Shown in pieces: positions 22,977-30,844 of a DNA stretch of 64,000 nt. The stretch is from the NCBI GenBank assembly GCA_028699085.1, contig JAQVVF010000004.1, positions 2,143 through 66,142 on the forward strand, given 5' to 3'. The DNA is from Patescibacteria group bacterium. Lineage in GTDB: Bacteria > Patescibacteriota > JABMPQ01 > JAQVVF01. Both the position numbers and the translations under genes were made by a program. The notes beneath the pieces are model-generated. The model did not search any database and was not told the DNA's origin. It saw only the letters and a program-made list of their open reading frames with translations. Within the stretch, counting starts at the first letter, position 1. Every line of letters starts with the position of its first letter.

Positions 22977-24437
22977 ATGTTAAAAACAAACAAAAAAAAC
23001 ATATTTTCAAGAATATTTTATTTTAAAATCAATAAAAGCGCTTTTTGCATTCTTACTTTGTTTTTTTTAATTGCTTTAGGATTTATCTTTGCTATAGCTT
23101 ATCAAGACCTCTATCAAATTTATGAAGTTTATACAATTAGAAATAATAATAGTACTGAACTTGTTCAACCAAACGAAAAAATTAAAATAAAATATAATAT
23201 TCCAATTTCCGAAAAAAAAGCCCAATCTTCATTTTCTATTTATCCTCAAATCAAAGGAAAAATCACCTGGGAAAGAAACTACCTTTTTGGCTACTCAAAA
23301 GTTTTAGTTTTTGCACCAGAAAAATATTTTGATGAAAACCAAAATTATTCCATCAAAATAGGGGATGTTGAAAGCATCTTTGGCACTAAAATTGGAAATC
23401 GTATCTATACTTTTTCTACAGTCAAGCCATTTAAAATCGTTGATACTTATCCAAAGAATGATCAAAAAGACATCAATGTTAATCCAGAAATAAAAGTCAC
23501 AGTTGATGGAATTGGCGATGCATTTGATTTTAATTTTAAACTTGAACCCTCAACAGAGCTCAAGGTTAAAGACAAGATTGAAGAAAATGGTCAAACAACT
23601 TATATTATTGATCCAGTTACTCAACTAGGACAGGGGATTGATTACACTTTTACAGTAAAACAAACCTATACACCAAACAAGAAAGCAGTAGACACAAAAA
23701 CCTTTCATTTTACGACACTATCACCAGTAGAAATTTCAAAAGTATTGCCAGAAGATAATGACCAAAATGTCCATGTCAAAAGAAAAGTATCTCTAGCTTT
23801 CAATAAGCCTGTCGATCATCAACAAGTAGAGAATAATTTTTCTTTGATGCCAGAAACAAAAGGGAATATTGGGTGGAAGGAAAACACCATGACCTTTACT
23901 CCAGAAGATAAATTTGCCAAAAATACCGAATATAAGATAAAAGTAATAGGCAATATCAAAAGCACACAAGATGAATCTTTCTTAGAAGGCGATAAAGAAT
24001 ACACATTCAAGACTAGAGATACTGATCAATATCCGCCGCAGCCAACTTGGGAACCAAAATATAAAGAAGGTAAATACATTCATGTTAATTTAGGTACTCA
24101 AACCCTTTATGCTTACGATAATGGGGAATTGATTGATTCATTTTTAATCTCTTCCGGCGTCTCAGCTTTCCCAACTCCAACAGGTGATTTCAAGGTTACT
24201 AGCAAAGTTCGATCAGCCAGAATGTCCCATACCTACGGTCCTGGCAATCCTAATAATTATGATCTACCTGGTGTCCCTTTTGTTTTAGCCTTTAATGGAC
24301 CTTATACAATTCATGGAACATATTGGCATAGTAATTTCGGCACACCAATGAGTCATGGCTGTGTGAACATGTATACGCCTGATGCAGAATGGGTCTATAA
24401 TTGGGCGCCAATTGATACGCCAGTTGTAATAGAATAG
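22977..24437 (+). CDS. L,D-transpeptidase (YkuD domain) with N-terminal TM anchor and Ig-like repeats
   Basis: C-terminal catalytic region IHGTYWHSNFGTPMSHGCVNM (His/Cys dyad of YkuD). Confidence 0.8.
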   Translation: MLKTNKKNIFSRIFYFKINKSAFCILTLFFLIALGFIFAIAYQDLYQIYEVYTIRNNNSTELVQPNEKIKIKYNIPISEKKAQSSFSIYPQIKGKITWERNYLFGYSKVLVFAPEKYFDENQNYSIKIGDVESIFGTKIGNRIYTFSTVKPFKIVDTYPKNDQKDINVNPEIKVTVDGIGDAFDFNFKLEPSTELKVKDKIEENGQTTYIIDPVTQLGQGIDYTFTVKQTYTPNKKAVDTKTFHFTTLSPVEISKVLPEDNDQNVHVKRKVSLAFNKPVDHQQVENNFSLMPETKGNIGWKENTMTFTPEDKFAKNTEYKIKVIGNIKSTQDESFLEGDKEYTFKTRDTDQYPPQPTWEPKYKEGKYIHVNLGTQTLYAYDNGELIDSFLISSGVSAFPTPTGDFKVTSKVRSARMSHTYGPGNPNNYDLPGVPFVLAFNGPYTIHGTYWHSNFGTPMSHGCVNMYTPDAEWVYNWAPIDTPVVIE

Positions 24438-24455
24438 AGAATCATAAAAAATTTT

Positions 24456-24485
24456 AAAACGCTAGAAACAATCTAGCGTTTTTTG
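24456..24485 (+). terminator. Rho-independent terminator after the L,D-transpeptidase gene
   Basis: AACGCTAG-aaacaat-CTAGCGTT followed by TTTT. Confidence 0.6.
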
Positions 24486-24515
24486 ATCATAAAAAAAGGA
24501 CCTAAAATAGATCCC

Positions 24516-24770
24516 TTACTCCTTTCTTGACCAAAGACCAATCACAACGATCTTGTGAAAAACACCATCTTTATCCATATAGCCAGGAACGTTACCATCA
24601 GCCCTAAGTTTATCAATCTCATCAAGTAATTCCAAAGCAATTTCAACCAAACTACTGATTGTATTACGATTAACACGAAGCATCAGCCTCTTTATCCAAG
24701 CATGCGCATCAACAGTGAAATCGATTGTTGTACGTATTTTTTTCTGCACTGGTTTTTTCATTCGAGACAT
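24516..24770 (-). CDS. Small ribbon-helix-helix-like protein (paralog A)
   Basis: KKIRTTIDFTVDAHAWIKRL beta-strand plus helix pattern. Strong SD AAGGAGG upstream. Paralogous to the adjacent ORF: shared ..SSL.E.AL...D.LDK....G.P.GY.D..G.F motif. Confidence 0.4.
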   Translation of the reverse strand: MSRMKKPVQKKIRTTIDFTVDAHAWIKRLMLRVNRNTISSLVEIALELLDEIDKLRADGNVPGYMDKDGVFHKIVVIGLWSRKE

Positions 24771-24783
24771 ATCTTTCCTCCTT

Positions 24784-25083
24784 TCAAGGAATGATTATCA
24801 TCAGCTCCTTAAAACTCCCATTGTCATCGCAGTAACCTAATGGCTTACCAGATAATTTTGCTTTATCAAGTGCATCAAATACGGCTAGAGCAACCTGTAT
24901 TGTTTCTGTTAAAGAACTATAACCTCTACGCCTCTGCAAACCAAGCAATAATTCCATATTAGAAATCGGTAATGCCAAATTTAATCTCGTAGTCTCAAAA
25001 GTTTTTTTCAGGCCTCGGCATCTTCTTCCTCCTTGTACAGGTAAACAGCTAATTAGTATAATAAAATATTGACAAGGCGTCAA
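24784..25083 (-). CDS. Small ribbon-helix-helix-like protein (paralog B), start codon uncertain
   Basis: KKTFETTRLNLALPISNMELLLGL...SSLTETIQVALAVFDALDKAKLSGKPLGYCDDNGSF aligns with paralog A. The N-terminal 25 aa of the track ORF are probably not translated. An SD GGAGGA lies internal, with an in-frame CTG and an out-of-frame ATG next to it. Confidence 0.3.
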   Translation of the reverse strand: MTPCQYFIILISCLPVQGGRRCRGLKKTFETTRLNLALPISNMELLLGLQRRRGYSSLTETIQVALAVFDALDKAKLSGKPLGYCDDNGSFKELMIIIP

Positions 25084-25694
25084 GAGAGGACAGGGAAGCA
25101 GTATTTAATTAATTATTTATACTAATTAATTAAGAGAATATAGAATAGTTTGTTAAACCTAAGACAGGATATACCTAAGAGTTACCGAATTATTTATGAA
25201 ATTAATTAAATAAATAGCATAAAAGATTAAATAAAATTTGTTTAAAGTTTGTCATTTTAGAAGAAAGCGCAGAGAGACATCACGTCGCACAATATATCTT
25301 TTACGACGTCTTTACTATAGAGACGACTCCCCTGGACATATTTTATTTTTTTAATTAATTATTATTATATCGTATTTAATAATTAATTATTAAATAATCT
25401 AAACTAACAAACAACCACACTACATTCTTATCACCTGCCTACTCATTTAATTATTTCTATTAATTAAATAAAATAATTAAATCTAACCCTCTGGCTAGAT
25501 CTATACAAACTAAAAATCTCTCCCACCCGTTATTTCCAAAAAAAGAGAGTAGTGTTATAAATAGTTTTTTAATAATTCTTAAATTTTTAACAAAAAACCA
25601 GGTAAATTAATACCTGGTTAGATATATAAAACGCTAGAATCGCCAAATTTTAACAAATTCCTTGCCCGCCGAAGCTTTAGCGAAAACGGATTGA
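25084..25694. repeat. Long (about 610 bp) noncoding region with iterated TAATTAATTATT motifs and a GC-rich core carrying an inverted repeat
   Basis: Exact 12-mer TAATTAATTATT at about 25106, 25352 and 25380, plus related TTAATTAA copies at about 25122 and 25460. Core 25261-25340 is GC-rich with ACGTCG...CGACGT inverted 16 nt apart. No ORF. This is unusual in an otherwise tightly packed window. Confidence 0.5.
25590..25620 (-). terminator. Rho-independent terminator downstream of the M23 peptidase gene (minus strand)
   Basis: AACCAGGTA-aattaa-TACCTGGTT: a 9-bp perfect stem. On the minus strand it is followed by a TTTTTTG run. Confidence 0.6.
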
Positions 25695-26891
25695 TTATTT
25701 CAAATATTTCATCGGATCAACTGGATTACCATTAATACGAACTTCAAAATGCAAATGTGGACCAGTTGTCATCCAACCCGCACCACGTGTTCCAGGCATA
25801 CCACCAGAAAGACCAATAACATCACCACGTTTTACATTAGATCCTTCAGCGACATAACATGCAGAAGCATGCCCAAAGACAGTCGAGAGTCCATTGCCAT
25901 GATAGAGAAGAATATAGCTATACCCTAGCCCAGCATCACTGTATTTTGCGACATATCCATCAGCAGGTGCATGCATCGGAGTGCCTTGTGGCGCAGGAAT
26001 ATCAATTGCATAATGCTGAATTCCCCAAAAAGAATAATAGCTAGAATCCATAAAATAAGCACTAATTCCTTGCACTGGATTTATCGGCCAACCTAGTTCA
26101 GCTCCACCAACATCTTGCCAGTTATCTTGAGTCGGATTATCTTGTTGCTGATTTCTAATTTGCTGTTCAATAGCATATATTTCATTATTTGCAGCATCTT
26201 GTTCCTCTTTCGCTTTCACCAATAACGCCTGAAACTCTTCTTCTTTATCTTCTGTTTGAGCCAACAGATTTTCTTTTCCCTCTTTTCTTCCACTTAATTC
26301 TTCTTTTTCAAAACTTAATTGATCATCCAGATTAGCTAAATCTTTGGCTTTAGAATCTAAATCCTTTTTATTGCTTTCCATTTCAACTTTAATTTTTTGA
26401 ACCTGATCTAATGTTTTCTGACCCTTATTTTCTAATGTTTCTAAATTATCTAACTGATCCAAAAATTGCGAAAAAGAATTATAGCCGAACAAAATCTCAA
26501 TTGGACTGACTTGATCATACTCATAAATCAATCTGATATACTCGCCTAATACTAATTTCTGTTTTGCAATTTCTTTCTTTTTCAAATCTATTTCAGATCT
26601 TAATTTCTCGATCTCTAAATTAGTTCTTTGAATTTCTGCCTGTGTCTTTTGTATTTGTGCCTTTGTCTTATCAATTTCCGTATCAATAATTGTAATTTGA
26701 TTTTTCAATGTAACTTGTTCGCTTTGTTTTTGATTTATTTCCTGCTCCAACTGTTGAATTTTATCTTCAATCTGCTGGATATCATTCTTTTTGGAATCTA
26801 GCTGAGAATTCAAATCAGCAGCAAAAACTTTGTAGCCAAAAGAAAATACTAATATTATCGCTAATGATAATGAAAATATTTTTTTAAACAT
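25695..26891 (-). CDS. Secreted coiled-coil M23 family metallopeptidase (EnvC/NlpD-like murein hydrolase or activator)
   Basis: Signal peptide and long coiled-coil. C-terminal M23 motifs HAPADGYV...GPHLHFEV. Confidence 0.8.
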   Translation of the reverse strand: MFKKIFSLSLAIILVFSFGYKVFAADLNSQLDSKKNDIQQIEDKIQQLEQEINQKQSEQVTLKNQITIIDTEIDKTKAQIQKTQAEIQRTNLEIEKLRSEIDLKKKEIAKQKLVLGEYIRLIYEYDQVSPIEILFGYNSFSQFLDQLDNLETLENKGQKTLDQVQKIKVEMESNKKDLDSKAKDLANLDDQLSFEKEELSGRKEGKENLLAQTEDKEEEFQALLVKAKEEQDAANNEIYAIEQQIRNQQQDNPTQDNWQDVGGAELGWPINPVQGISAYFMDSSYYSFWGIQHYAIDIPAPQGTPMHAPADGYVAKYSDAGLGYSYILLYHGNGLSTVFGHASACYVAEGSNVKRGDVIGLSGGMPGTRGAGWMTTGPHLHFEVRINGNPVDPMKYLK

Positions 26892-28397: not shown

Positions 28398-29232
28398 AAT
28401 TATTCATTTTATATTTATAAACCTGTCTAACAAATCTAAATGTTGCAGTGATTATTCTGCCAATTCTTTGCGGTTGCAAAATTACCCGCCACAACCATTC
28501 TAAACCAATTTTCTGAAAAAATCTAGGGGCTCTTTTCGCTTTTCCTGCAATAAAATCAAATGATCCGCCGACACCCATTGCTAATTTTATCATTGATAAA
28601 TTTGGCAAGTTTCTAACAATCCATTTTTCCTGCTTAACTTGTCCAAAAGCTACAAATACAACATCTGCCTGAGACTTATTTATTAATTCCTGGATAACAT
28701 AATCATCGGCTTCTTGGTATAATCCTTCATAGACTCCGGCGATCTCTAAATTAGGGTAAACAGCTTTCATTTCTTTTGCTGTCTTCTCCCCTACTTTATC
28801 GTAACCACCCAAAAAAAAGATAGAACAATTATTTTGTTCAGACAATTTTGCGATATTCCACATTAAATCAACACCACTTATTCTCTCCGATAAAACAGTT
28901 CTACAAAATTTAGGATAAAAAATTAAACTAAGTCCACCTATAATTATTCTAAAATTTTCATTTATCCTAAGTAAAAATCTATTTTTCAAGTTCGATTTCC
29001 AACTCAGATATTTTGCTGCCCAAAGCATTCCGATACCATCAGGTATAGCTATACTAGAATTATTTAGTATCTGCTTAAAATCATCATCTTTTAAAGCTGC
29101 CATTACAAATTCAGGATTAACAGTTGAAATATATTTTTTATTATTCTCAAACAAAAATTTTTCAATCTGATGCTGAACTTGATTGATGGTTAGCTTGCTA
29201 ATTTTAACTCCTAAAATATCTACTTTTTCCAT
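28384..29232 (-). CDS. WecB/TagA/CpsF-family glycosyltransferase
   Basis: TagA-type N-terminus (VDILGVKIS...STVNPEF...IPDGIG) and C-terminal GVGGSFDFIAG...WRV. Confidence 0.8.
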   Translation of the reverse strand: MEKVDILGVKISKLTINQVQHQIEKFLFENNKKYISTVNPEFVMAALKDDDFKQILNNSSIAIPDGIGMLWAAKYLSWKSNLKNRFLLRINENFRIIIGGLSLIFYPKFCRTVLSERISGVDLMWNIAKLSEQNNCSIFFLGGYDKVGEKTAKEMKAVYPNLEIAGVYEGLYQEADDYVIQELINKSQADVVFVAFGQVKQEKWIVRNLPNLSMIKLAMGVGGSFDFIAGKAKRAPRFFQKIGLEWLWRVILQPQRIGRIITATFRFVRQVYKYKMNNYGQN

Positions 29233-29834
29233 AACTTATATTTTTCTAAAACTTTATACTCTGATCCTGTTCTCTTCAAAATACTTTGCATTAGATTAAT
29301 TTCAGTAATTATCCAAAATCCAGAAACTTTTCTTTTTTTAATTAAATTAATTTGGCTATTGCTAATTTTATTTATCCTTCCAAAAGTCAAATGCGCTTTG
29401 TATTTTCTTTTTTCTGGCTTAAAAAAAATATACTTACTTAATTCTTCGCCAATCATTTTTTGTAGATCTTCAATCTTATTATTGCTATCGATATTAAATA
29501 CAACTACTCGAGGATTTTTTTCATTCGGAAAAAAATCACAATCAGATAATTCGGCTCGAAAACATTCAAATCTTATTTTCAACAAAACATCTTTAAGTTT
29601 TTCGATTTCTTCATTACCTAAATAACCTAGAAAATACAAAGTTATGTGTAACTTTTTTCTTAGTTCCCATTTAACGCCTTTAAAATCAACAAAATGTTTT
29701 TGCGCTTTAGCTATCTTATCCTTTATGCTTTCAGAAACATTCAGAGAAATAAAAATACGTTTCTTTTTCATAATATAAGTATACCAAATATTTGAAGATT
29801 TACAAAAAAATGCTAAGATTAAAGCAAATGCCAT
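29220..29834 (-). CDS. thpR: RNA 2',3'-cyclic phosphodiesterase (2H phosphoesterase, LigT/ThpR)
   Basis: Two H-x-T-x motifs: HITLYFLG and HLTFGRI. Confidence 0.75.
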   Translation of the reverse strand: MAFALILAFFCKSSNIWYTYIMKKKRIFISLNVSESIKDKIAKAQKHFVDFKGVKWELRKKLHITLYFLGYLGNEEIEKLKDVLLKIRFECFRAELSDCDFFPNEKNPRVVVFNIDSNNKIEDLQKMIGEELSKYIFFKPEKRKYKAHLTFGRINKISNSQINLIKKRKVSGFWIITEINLMQSILKRTGSEYKVLEKYKLWKK

Positions 29835-30844
29835 ATTTTGAAACCATCATTATTGGCGCTGGACCAGCTGGGTTATTCGCAGCCAAAACGCTAGCTAAAC
29901 AAAAAAAACAAGTATTGGTCTTAGAAAAAAACTCTGAATTTGGAAAAAAGATCTGTGCAGGCGGTTTGACCCAGAAAGACATTGATTATTTTAAAATCCC
30001 AATTTCAATTTGTGATCAAAGTTTTAATTCTGCTAAACTAGTCATATTTAAAAAAATTGCTTATCTAAACCAAAACGAACCGTATTTATATACTATAGAA
30101 CGAGAAAAACTAGGAGGACATCTTTCAGAGCAAGCAAAACAAGCAGGCGCAATAATAAATACAAATTCAAATGTTATCTCAATAAAAAATAATTCAGTAA
30201 ATACAGATAAAGAACACTATACATTTAAGTATCTAATAGGTGCGGATGGCGCAAATTCTATAGTTCGAAAATTTTTAAGAATACCAACAAATAAAACTCT
30301 AACAACAATGCAAGTCCGAACAAATAAATTGTTCAAAGACTTCGAAATCCAAATTAACACGAAATTATTTGGTCCACATTATGCTTGGATCTTTCCGCAC
30401 AAAAATCACACTCGTTTTGGCACTGCTACTGATCAACAATATTTTTCAATTTCCAAATTAAGAAACAATTTTTTTCTCTGGCTAAAAAAATACAACGTCA
30501 CAGAAAAAGATATTGAGTCATTCCCAATTAATTACGATTTTAAGGGTATGCAATTTAATAACTTTTTCCTAGTTGGCGAAGCCGGTGGTTTTACTAACGG
30601 TTTAACTGGTGAAGGGATTTATAATGCTCTTCTATCAGGTCAAGAAGCTGCAAAAAAGATTATTGACCCAAATTATAACTATAGTATAAGATTTAAAAGA
30701 ATTTTAGAGCAAAAAAAGTTCTGTGAAAAATTTATGAATTTTTACAAAATCAGACCCTTAATTTATTTATTATATAAGTTACTTCCTTTTTATTGCAAAA
30801 ACAAAAATAGAAAATCAAAAATAATCAATTACTTTGCAAACTAA
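29792..30844 (+). CDS. FAD-dependent oxidoreductase, geranylgeranyl reductase family
   Basis: IIGAGPAGLFAA dinucleotide-binding motif, CAGGL, GADGANSIVRK. Confidence 0.6.
   Translation: MKIYKKMLRLKQMPYFETIIIGAGPAGLFAAKTLAKQKKQVLVLEKNSEFGKKICAGGLTQKDIDYFKIPISICDQSFNSAKLVIFKKIAYLNQNEPYLYTIEREKLGGHLSEQAKQAGAIINTNSNVISIKNNSVNTDKEHYTFKYLIGADGANSIVRKFLRIPTNKTLTTMQVRTNKLFKDFEIQINTKLFGPHYAWIFPHKNHTRFGTATDQQYFSISKLRNNFFLWLKKYNVTEKDIESFPINYDFKGMQFNNFFLVGEAGGFTNGLTGEGIYNALLSGQEAAKKIIDPNYNYSIRFKRILEQKKFCEKFMNFYKIRPLIYLLYKLLPFYCKNKNRKSKIINYFAN

Follow-up and report, generated by a model that had tools for sequence, protein, structure and literature searches.

A 28-bp element at positions 25282-25309 in the DNA of a Patescibacteria group bacterium very probably represents the dif-type recombination site of that phylum. 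The element lies in a 64,000-nucleotide stretch of contig JAQVVF010000004.1, which is termed the window here and in which positions are counted. A broader picture also appears likely, in which the site marks the replication terminus and is accompanied by a lineage-specific, self-regulating pair of genes for ribbon-helix-helix (RHH) proteins with palindromic operators. The dif-type identity follows from the combination of conserved arms, a centre that varies freely yet matches between partner sites, and filamentous prophages that lack an integrase and are inserted at the site. The kinds of element are known, i.e. dif, the integrative mobile elements exploiting Xer recombination (IMEX) and RHH repressors; the Patescibacteria site and the pairing of RHH genes with dif appear to be undescribed. 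In the literature searched, neither the site sequence nor a dif for Patescibacteria, the candidate phyla radiation (CPR) or Saccharibacteria was found, and the site may be known elsewhere.

A probable dif-type site

Read on the minus strand, the site is ACGTCGTAAAA-GATATA-TTGTGCGACGT, with arms at 25309-25299 and 25292-25282 and a 6-bp centre at 25298-25293. It consists of an imperfect palindrome of 9+6+9 (GTCGTAAAA-GATATA-TTGTGCGAC), where seven of the nine positions in the arm cores match as an inverted repeat, and two flanking bases on each side bring it to 11+6+11 bp. An original prediction, made from the letters of the window, had pointed to an inverted repeat, ACGTCG-16 nt-CGACGT, within a GC-rich core; the repeat is real, has the coordinates of the site and occurs as a single copy in the 64-kb window even with three mismatches allowed. 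The two arms of about 11 bp would bind recombinases around a 6-bp overlap region, and by analogy with known systems Xer-type tyrosine recombinases would exchange strands at the site, with the resolution of chromosome dimers as the outcome.

How widespread is the sequence? The 24-mer GTCGTAAAAGATATATTGTGCGAC (minus strand, 25307-25284) is identical in the lineages of the window, L001 and L010; L001-L003 represent a more distant syntenic relative with ~85% nucleotide identity to the window. In a scan of one genome per species, more than 120 Patescibacteria species, a lower bound, had an exact copy of the 24-mer; the clades include Saccharibacteria, Paceibacteria, Nomurabacteria, Campbellbacteria and Yonathbacteria. 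There is one match per assembly in the 80 matches listed. The flanks of the 24-mer form a conserved asymmetric extension, commonly AT...GT, and beyond this the surroundings of the site show no relationship between clades. The exact Patescibacteria site is also found in a contig that bears the label 'uncultured Pseudomonadales' (L025, CAZDRB010000004.1) and is probably mis-binned.

The sequences of Escherichia coli dif (GGTGCGCATAATGTATATTATGTTAAAT) and Bacillus subtilis dif (ACTTCCTAGAATATATATTATGTAAACT) are known (PMC3025954). In register, the 28-mer matches B. subtilis dif at 19 of 28 positions (shuffle P ~1e-4) and E. coli dif at 15 of 28, and the two known dif sequences also share 19 of 28 positions with each other. 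The site resembles XerCD dif in its 28-bp length, its two arms of about 11 bp, its AT-rich 6-bp centre, its presence in one copy per locus, its location at a point of gene convergence and skew switch, and its strong conservation across a phylum. It differs in its arms, GTCGTAAAA and TTGTGCGAC, and in a dyad symmetry that is found in the outer and not the inner positions.

Integrase-less prophages at the site

IMG/VR viral contigs were scanned with the arms fixed and the six central bases left free. This yielded 60 contigs with 28 different centres. In seven of these (L152, L163, L165, L179, L181, L184 and L186) there is a second site 5.1-5.9 kb away that retains only the centre and the right arm, e.g. 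TTCCTACTT-GATATA-TTGTGCGAC. The two centres are identical within the contig in all seven, whether GATATA or GGTATA (one GGTATA pair is included). The pattern is that of a tyrosine-recombinase core site: the arms are conserved, and the centre is free yet the same in both partner sites.

The contig L163 is instructive, as it corresponds to a Saccharimonas contig with an empty site (L020) to which 5.5 kb of DNA have been added, beginning immediately at the site (L163:2210-7756). This insert has genes for a Zot-like assembly ATPase (phrog_197, 6e-9) and for a rolling-circle Rep of the G2P type known from filamentous phages (PF23343, 2.5e-10). Its seven larger open reading frames (ORFs) include no integrase by Pfam and PHROGs, a search that left three ORFs of 53-62 aa outside its scope. 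Two such elements are found in tandem in L179 and in L184. The insertion junctions show that integrase-less filamentous prophages integrate at the dif-type site, leaving one full and one degenerate site, as do IMEX at their target.

Exploitation of dif by filamentous phages is known from Vibrio and Xanthomonas (PMC3025954), and inoviruses have been reported in CPR hosts (PMC6813254). The Patescibacteria elements share many properties with IMEX such as CTXphi, VGJphi and TLC of Vibrio and the Xanthomonas filamentous phages: they are integrase-less and filamentous-phage-like, they carry a Zot-like ATPase and a rolling-circle Rep, at their junctions a complete site is paired with one that has the same centre but a single degenerate arm, and different elements form tandem arrays. 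They differ in that the hosts are Patescibacteria and in that the degenerate arm is not assignable to XerC or XerD.

Probable position at the replication terminus

Gene orientation and nucleotide skew suggest that the replication terminus of this Patescibacteria (CPR) chromosome falls within the window. Of 81 loci, 66 have their nearest genes of at least 100 aa converging on the site; the upstream gene shares the strand of the site in 96 of 104 loci, and the downstream gene has the opposite strand in 85 of 95. AT skew becomes lower on crossing the site in 55 of 56 loci, and the same holds for GC skew in 44 of 56. Averaged over loci, GC skew is +0.06 before the site and -0.03 after it, with the change of sign exactly at the site. 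Within the window, the plus strand has most of the genes before 24.4 kb and the minus strand most of those past 25.7 kb; GC skew falls at the site from about zero to values of -0.2 to -0.33, and the sign of AT skew switches.

The neighbouring genes vary with the clade. In Saccharibacteria (L014, L021, L024, L046, L074 and others), the site directly follows MraY-FtsW-MurG and an FtsQ-like gene (~310 aa), and the gene facing it encodes a P-loop ATPase of ~900 aa whose domains are of the TrwB/VirD4/HerA type; the presence of a DNA translocase gene beside dif is suggestive. In the clade of the window, the site follows an M23 peptidase gene and often faces a CAP-domain gene. As the neighbours differ between clades, the convergence pattern does not represent one inherited gene order. 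An origin of replication was also considered, since L033 and L125 have a DnaA-box-like TTATCCACA some 40-60 nt after the site, which may be chance; it was rejected because the genes converge on the site and do not diverge from it.

The RHH gene pair

Two small minus-strand genes are situated beside the site. ORF A (24516-24770, Shine-Dalgarno sequence GGAGGA at 24781-24776) is intact and encodes 84 aa with an RHH N-terminus and a C-terminal beta-hairpin. ORF B (24784-25021, GGAGGA at 25032-25027) encodes 78 aa when intact and is frameshifted in the window. The two were predicted to be paralogues with an RHH-type N-terminus, and both statements are supported: ORF A and ORF B share 25% identity over 77 residues (BLASTP, E=4e-9), and profile and model comparisons, described below, point to the RHH fold. 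The ratio of non-synonymous to synonymous substitution (dN/dS) of ORF A versus its L001 orthologue is 0.175 at a dS of 0.77, which marks ORF A as a genuine gene under purifying selection.

Word-based protein searches with the window ORFs returned orthologues only, and Pfam, NCBIfam and PHROGs gave no significant family for these ORFs taken alone. With a family profile, 21 proteins at E<=1e-3 were found among 1.84 billion representative proteins. Members are mostly of ~75 aa, with MPRP.K...T.RLNLDL...L.RL....ADS.SEVIRRAL.LYD......G......D.DG...E as the common pattern, and two of the proteins consist of two copies fused in tandem. Pfam RHH_1 is matched by six of 18 aligned members (best 9.3e-6), and in a comparison of the family profile with the Protein Data Bank (PDB) the best solved relatives are CopG (0.018), ParD (0.026) and NikR (0.47). 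An AlphaFold2 monomer built from the 18-sequence alignment has a mean predicted confidence (pLDDT) of 85.9, with helices at 20-33 and 38-57 followed by a hairpin at the C-terminus. No strand is assigned to the N-terminal segment, which is expected when the dimer partner is absent. The best geometric matches of the model in the PDB (Foldseek) are RHH proteins, namely ParD, AtaR, CdbA and Arc, with 1.8-2.9 Å over 41-50 aligned positions. The RHH fold of the ORF A and ORF B proteins is supported by the profile and the model, and the dimer is a prediction.

A phage connection is also apparent. The phage family phrog_8557, which is of unknown function, is matched by 13 of 18 family members (best 2.8e-15); the two L010 orthologues score ~1e-5. 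Other members are found in phage-like contigs, one of which is 273 kb long and has a PhiKZ-type capsid gene. This contig (L007), probably a jumbo phage of a host with 51% GC, encodes the nearest non-orthologous RHH relative, P0004 (L007:5001-5234, phrog_8557 2.8e-15), among small unknown genes. Near the dif-type site, the RHH family was not found outside the window's own lineage in ~180 other loci, and protein-pattern and promoter-pattern scans of metagenome contigs for the RHH lineage gave 600 and 29 raw matches, all unrelated.

The proteins resemble CopG/Arc/ParD-type repressors in their N-terminal strand-helix-helix, as seen in sequence pattern, profile and model. Repressors of this type usually regulate their own expression, and as dimers they recognise operators that are repeated or palindromic. 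Unlike them, the ORF A/B family has an extra conserved C-terminal beta-hairpin (G..GY.D.DG.F), is without its own Pfam entry and has no adjacent toxin or ParA-type partner: neither was found beside the RHH pair. The pair most likely encodes lineage-specific, phage-related DNA-binding proteins of a rare family that is related to phrog_8557.

ORF B has a different history from ORF A. The original prediction gave ORF B as 99 aa, without an in-frame ATG after its Shine-Dalgarno sequence, and proposed a non-ATG start, a frameshift or decay. The 99-aa reading (24784-25083, minus strand) begins at a TTG inside the promoter; the true start is the ATG at 25021-25019, 5 nt behind GGAGGA. The frameshift is upheld: a run of seven A residues (25002-25008, minus strand) puts this ATG out of frame, and an intact 78-aa orthologue, MPRPEKPFETT... 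(P0003), is present in L004-L006, three independent assemblies of one sister strain. In L004-L006, it is the first ATG of ORF A that is out of frame, and again an A-run differs by one base. Reciprocal one-base differences thus occur just past the start codons (window 25002-25008 and 24755-24765 versus L004-L006), and these could represent chance decay, homopolymer assembly errors or slippage-prone switching.

In L001-L003, ORF B is wholly missing. The deletion joins the Shine-Dalgarno sequences of the two genes, each a copy of AAGGAGGAA (window 24784-25032 versus L001:8600-8640), and its ends at short direct repeats are as expected for loss by recombination between them. ORF B is dispensable and decaying: it is frameshifted in the window, intact in a sister strain and deleted in a third.

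The minus-strand order of the locus is M23 gene, terminator, AT-rich noncoding DNA, promoter, ORF B, ORF A, two terminators and a converging YkuD gene. The sigma-70-type promoter of the RHH operon, located by a consensus scan, has TTGACG at 25083-25078 and TATACT at 25060-25055 (minus strand) with a 17-nt spacer, and lies ~200 nt from dif. It is identical in L001 and L004-L006 and is kept as TTGACG-N17-TATACT in L010. The operon is most likely a lineage-specific, phage-related addition beside dif that encodes a self-regulating repressor pair, one copy of which is being lost.

AT-rich palindromes around the site

The noncoding stretch was predicted to be the longest of the window at about 610 bp and to be rich in AT repeats. 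Both are upheld: it measures 611 bp (25084-25694), or 673 bp from the true ORF B start, and is the longest real gap by a crude gene call. The sequence TAATTAATTATT is present in four exact copies (25106+, 25352+, 25378- and 25380+) and is found once elsewhere. The shorter palindrome TTAATTAA occurs five times in the 611 bp versus 0.33 expected from dinucleotide shuffles of the region (none of 2000 shuffles reaches five). Its density is ~38 times that in other AT-rich DNA of the window, and the count in the window as a whole is not unusual (12 observed versus 13.6 expected).

The distribution of the palindromes is of interest. Among ~185 dif-type loci, five or six TTAATTAA copies within 350 nt are confined to the window, L001/L002 and L010, which is precisely the set of loci with RHH genes; the others have zero to two copies, including those that are equally AT-rich. 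That the clusters are found only where RHH genes occur is the main argument for TTAATTAA as an RHH binding site, and the palindromes are probably RHH operators. The RHH proteins would bind them as dimers and at least repress their own promoter. The proposal of a repressor pair with operators is retained for the palindromes, a non-random set that travels with the RHH genes; it does not apply to the GC-rich core, which is the dif-type site.

A candidate RHH operator near the promoter is the inverted pair TTAATTAATTA-N7-TAATTAATTAA at 25105-25133, 22-50 nt upstream of the -35 sequence, which is conserved in L001 and L004/L005. A TAATTA half-palindrome at 25050-25055 overlaps the -10/+1 region. 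The pair upstream of -35 together with TAATTA over -10/+1 fits autoregulation. On the RHH side, a further TTAATTAA palindrome is located at 25202-25209, at a distance of 90 nt from the centre of dif. The far (M23) side has TTAATTAA and TAATTAATTATT palindromes at 25351-25391 (59 and ~89 nt from the dif centre) and a TTAATTAA palindrome at 25460-25467 (168 nt). The distances from dif are -168, -89 and -59 and +90, +166 and +187 in the window, -179, -164, -92 and -71 and +90, +166 and +187 in L001, and -151, -82 and -58 and +78 and +180 in L010. In three lineages, the palindromes lie on both sides of dif and are roughly mirrored (about ±60, ±90 and ±170 nt), an arrangement that autoregulation alone does not explain.

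The repeats are short palindromes and not phased direct iterons, which speaks against an iteron-type origin or partition locus. The original prediction had entertained partition or replication control, which is not supported; no ParA-type or replication-initiator gene was found among the annotated flanking ORFs, a search that did not extend to the whole window. Nor is the core part of an iteron array as first thought, as it is a phylum-wide recombination site present in more than 120 species, a lower bound, without RHH genes.

Weighing the interpretations

A number of points weigh against the interpretation offered here. The genome scan asked for exact matches, and the invariance of the 24-mer is partly so by construction. 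A canonical dif has more than four pairs at inner arm positions 7-12/17-22 (PMC3025954). The Patescibacteria site has only three Watson-Crick pairs there, with its dyad symmetry in outer positions 1-6/23-28, and it is classed for this reason as dif-type and not as canonical dif. The terminus is placed by local gene orientation and skew only, and GC skew in the window left of the site is near zero and not clearly positive. No Xer recombinase or FtsK was found in the window, and by a crude test the tyrosine-recombinase box II motif is absent from 388 mid-size ORFs within ~4-8 kb of the site in 120 loci. Whole lineages can rely on atypical dif sites, in some cases with arms that are more palindromic, as with difSL/XerS of streptococci and difH/XerH of Helicobacter, and there the recombinase gene adjoins the site; near the Patescibacteria site no such motif is seen over that range. 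On the side of the RHH proteins, the window's own ORFs taken alone fall short of significance for Pfam RHH_1 and for phrog_8557 (only 0.13-0.21 for the latter), and none of the Foldseek E-values versus PDB is significant. Lastly, the far-side candidate operators are superfluous for simple autoregulation.

Did the RHH operon come with a mobile element that has since decayed? The operon and its AT-rich flanks might represent a leftover regulatory module of a degraded element that had integrated at dif, with no present host role. This appears unlikely. In its favour, 13 of 18 family members match phrog_8557 and others are in phage-like contigs, the family is rare (21 matches in 1.84 billion proteins), the operon is at an integration hot spot, and ORF B is polymorphic in presence and in frame. 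It is difficult to reconcile, however, with the purifying selection on ORF A across ~0.77 synonymous substitutions per site and with the retention of operon position and promoter in three diverged lineages. A search for a second half-site bounding the RHH block found none, and a one-sided insertion does not explain palindromes that straddle dif.

Could the RHH proteins act on dif itself? Together with the TTAATTAA array they might form an accessory complex around dif that controls when Xer recombination takes place and could, for instance, block prophage integration or license it, as at the plasmid sites cer and psi; they would then be more than a self-regulating repressor pair. At these sites, arrays of binding sites for ArgR/PepA or ArcA/PepA lie beside the Xer core site, and the Patescibacteria array, putative as it is, resembles them in this respect. 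The accessory DNA of cer and psi is on one side only, unlike the motifs on both sides of the Patescibacteria dif, and chromosomal dif is not known to need accessory DNA. The mirrored palindromes in all three lineages, their restriction to loci with RHH genes and the role of dif as a hot spot for integrase-less prophages in Patescibacteria are what an accessory complex would lead one to expect. The arrangement is confined, however, to three related lineages, in two of which ORF B is lost or broken, while more than 120 species (a lower bound) manage dif without RHH genes, and AT-rich palindromes could serve promoters or nucleoid proteins. A gating role is on balance improbable.

More doubtful still is the notion that the core is an attachment site (attB) with no part in dimer resolution, kept for another reason and used by a non-Xer enzyme such as a phage rolling-circle Rep or an unlinked integrase. 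The lack of a Xer gene in the window and of the motif near the 120 loci, the departure from canonical dif symmetry and the HUH-type Rep of the inserted elements would fit such an enzyme. The site is exactly conserved across the phylum in prophage-free genomes, however (L020 has an empty site), it lies at the terminus and resembles B. subtilis dif in register, and the 11+6+11 structure with a partner-identical centre is a tyrosine-recombinase signature.

A small-RNA locus had also been suggested. With Rfam 15 at the gathering score, no match was obtained in the window, and none with E below 0.3 at 24400-25800; 18 other loci with the site gave one tRNA only. Folding energies of the core are ordinary (z = -1.9 on the gene strand and -0.9 on the other; eight of 200 shuffles fold as well), and a first impression of a covarying stem in the core flanks was dropped, as pairing is barely above that of independent columns. 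A small-RNA gene or terminal hairpin, with a stem of GTCG/CGAC plus flanks and an invariant 16-nt loop, is very hard to credit: a hairpin can form, T-G, the commonest flank combination on this strand, would be a G-U pair in RNA, and the gene-strand z-score leans that way, but in viral copies the arms are retained and the six central 'loop' nucleotides are free to differ, half-sites mark prophage junctions, and a location between converging genes at a skew switch is left unexplained.

The dif-type site at the terminus, with a self-regulating RHH pair beside it, remains the preferred interpretation.

Other features of the locus and window

The M23 (EnvC-like) peptidase gene (minus strand), the upstream neighbour of the noncoding block, ends at 25695; its terminator (25619-25596, minus strand) forms the other edge of the block and is conserved in L001/L002. 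Two minus-strand terminator hairpins follow ORF A (24517-24495 and 24482-24456), and the second is also downstream of the converging YkuD gene. The GC content of the ORFs is 35-40% versus ~31% for the window, in keeping with the enrichment first proposed. A 13-nt direct repeat, TAAAACGCTAGAA, at 24455-24467 and 25627-25639 (plus strand) brackets the whole block of dif plus RHH genes. One copy represents half of a bidirectional terminator hairpin, and the repeat is conserved in L001 and not in L010. In L010 (L010:1257-1888), two extra small genes on the opposite strand, one of 106 aa and membrane-like and one of 85 aa, are situated between the RHH pair and YkuD, and the dif-adjacent stretch thus varies in content between lineages. 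A short ORF (MSLCAFF) in the conserved noncoding stretch was dropped as a candidate, as it is not kept in L005 or L010.

Farther away, a block of ~1.6 kb (29220-30844) is missing from L001, which is otherwise collinear. It contains a LigT-like 2'-5' RNA ligase gene (29220-29834, minus strand) and an FAD-dependent oxidoreductase gene (29792-30844, plus strand). A scan of the window for tRNA and tmRNA found none.

Significance

The Patescibacteria are a huge and mostly uncultured group, and for thousands of their fragmentary genomes the dif sequence would provide a one-line marker of the terminus. Such a marker would help in the ordering of contigs, in checks of growth-rate estimates and in the location of oriC by symmetry. 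The same pattern serves as a simple finder of integrated Xer-dependent elements, and it has already yielded inovirus-like prophages and tandem arrays. The RHH genes and palindromes around dif are a small oddity, which could nevertheless bear on how dif is protected or exploited. If the RHH proteins did form an accessory complex with the palindromes, this would represent a dedicated regulator of chromosomal dif, derived from a mobile element and guarding against filamentous prophages.

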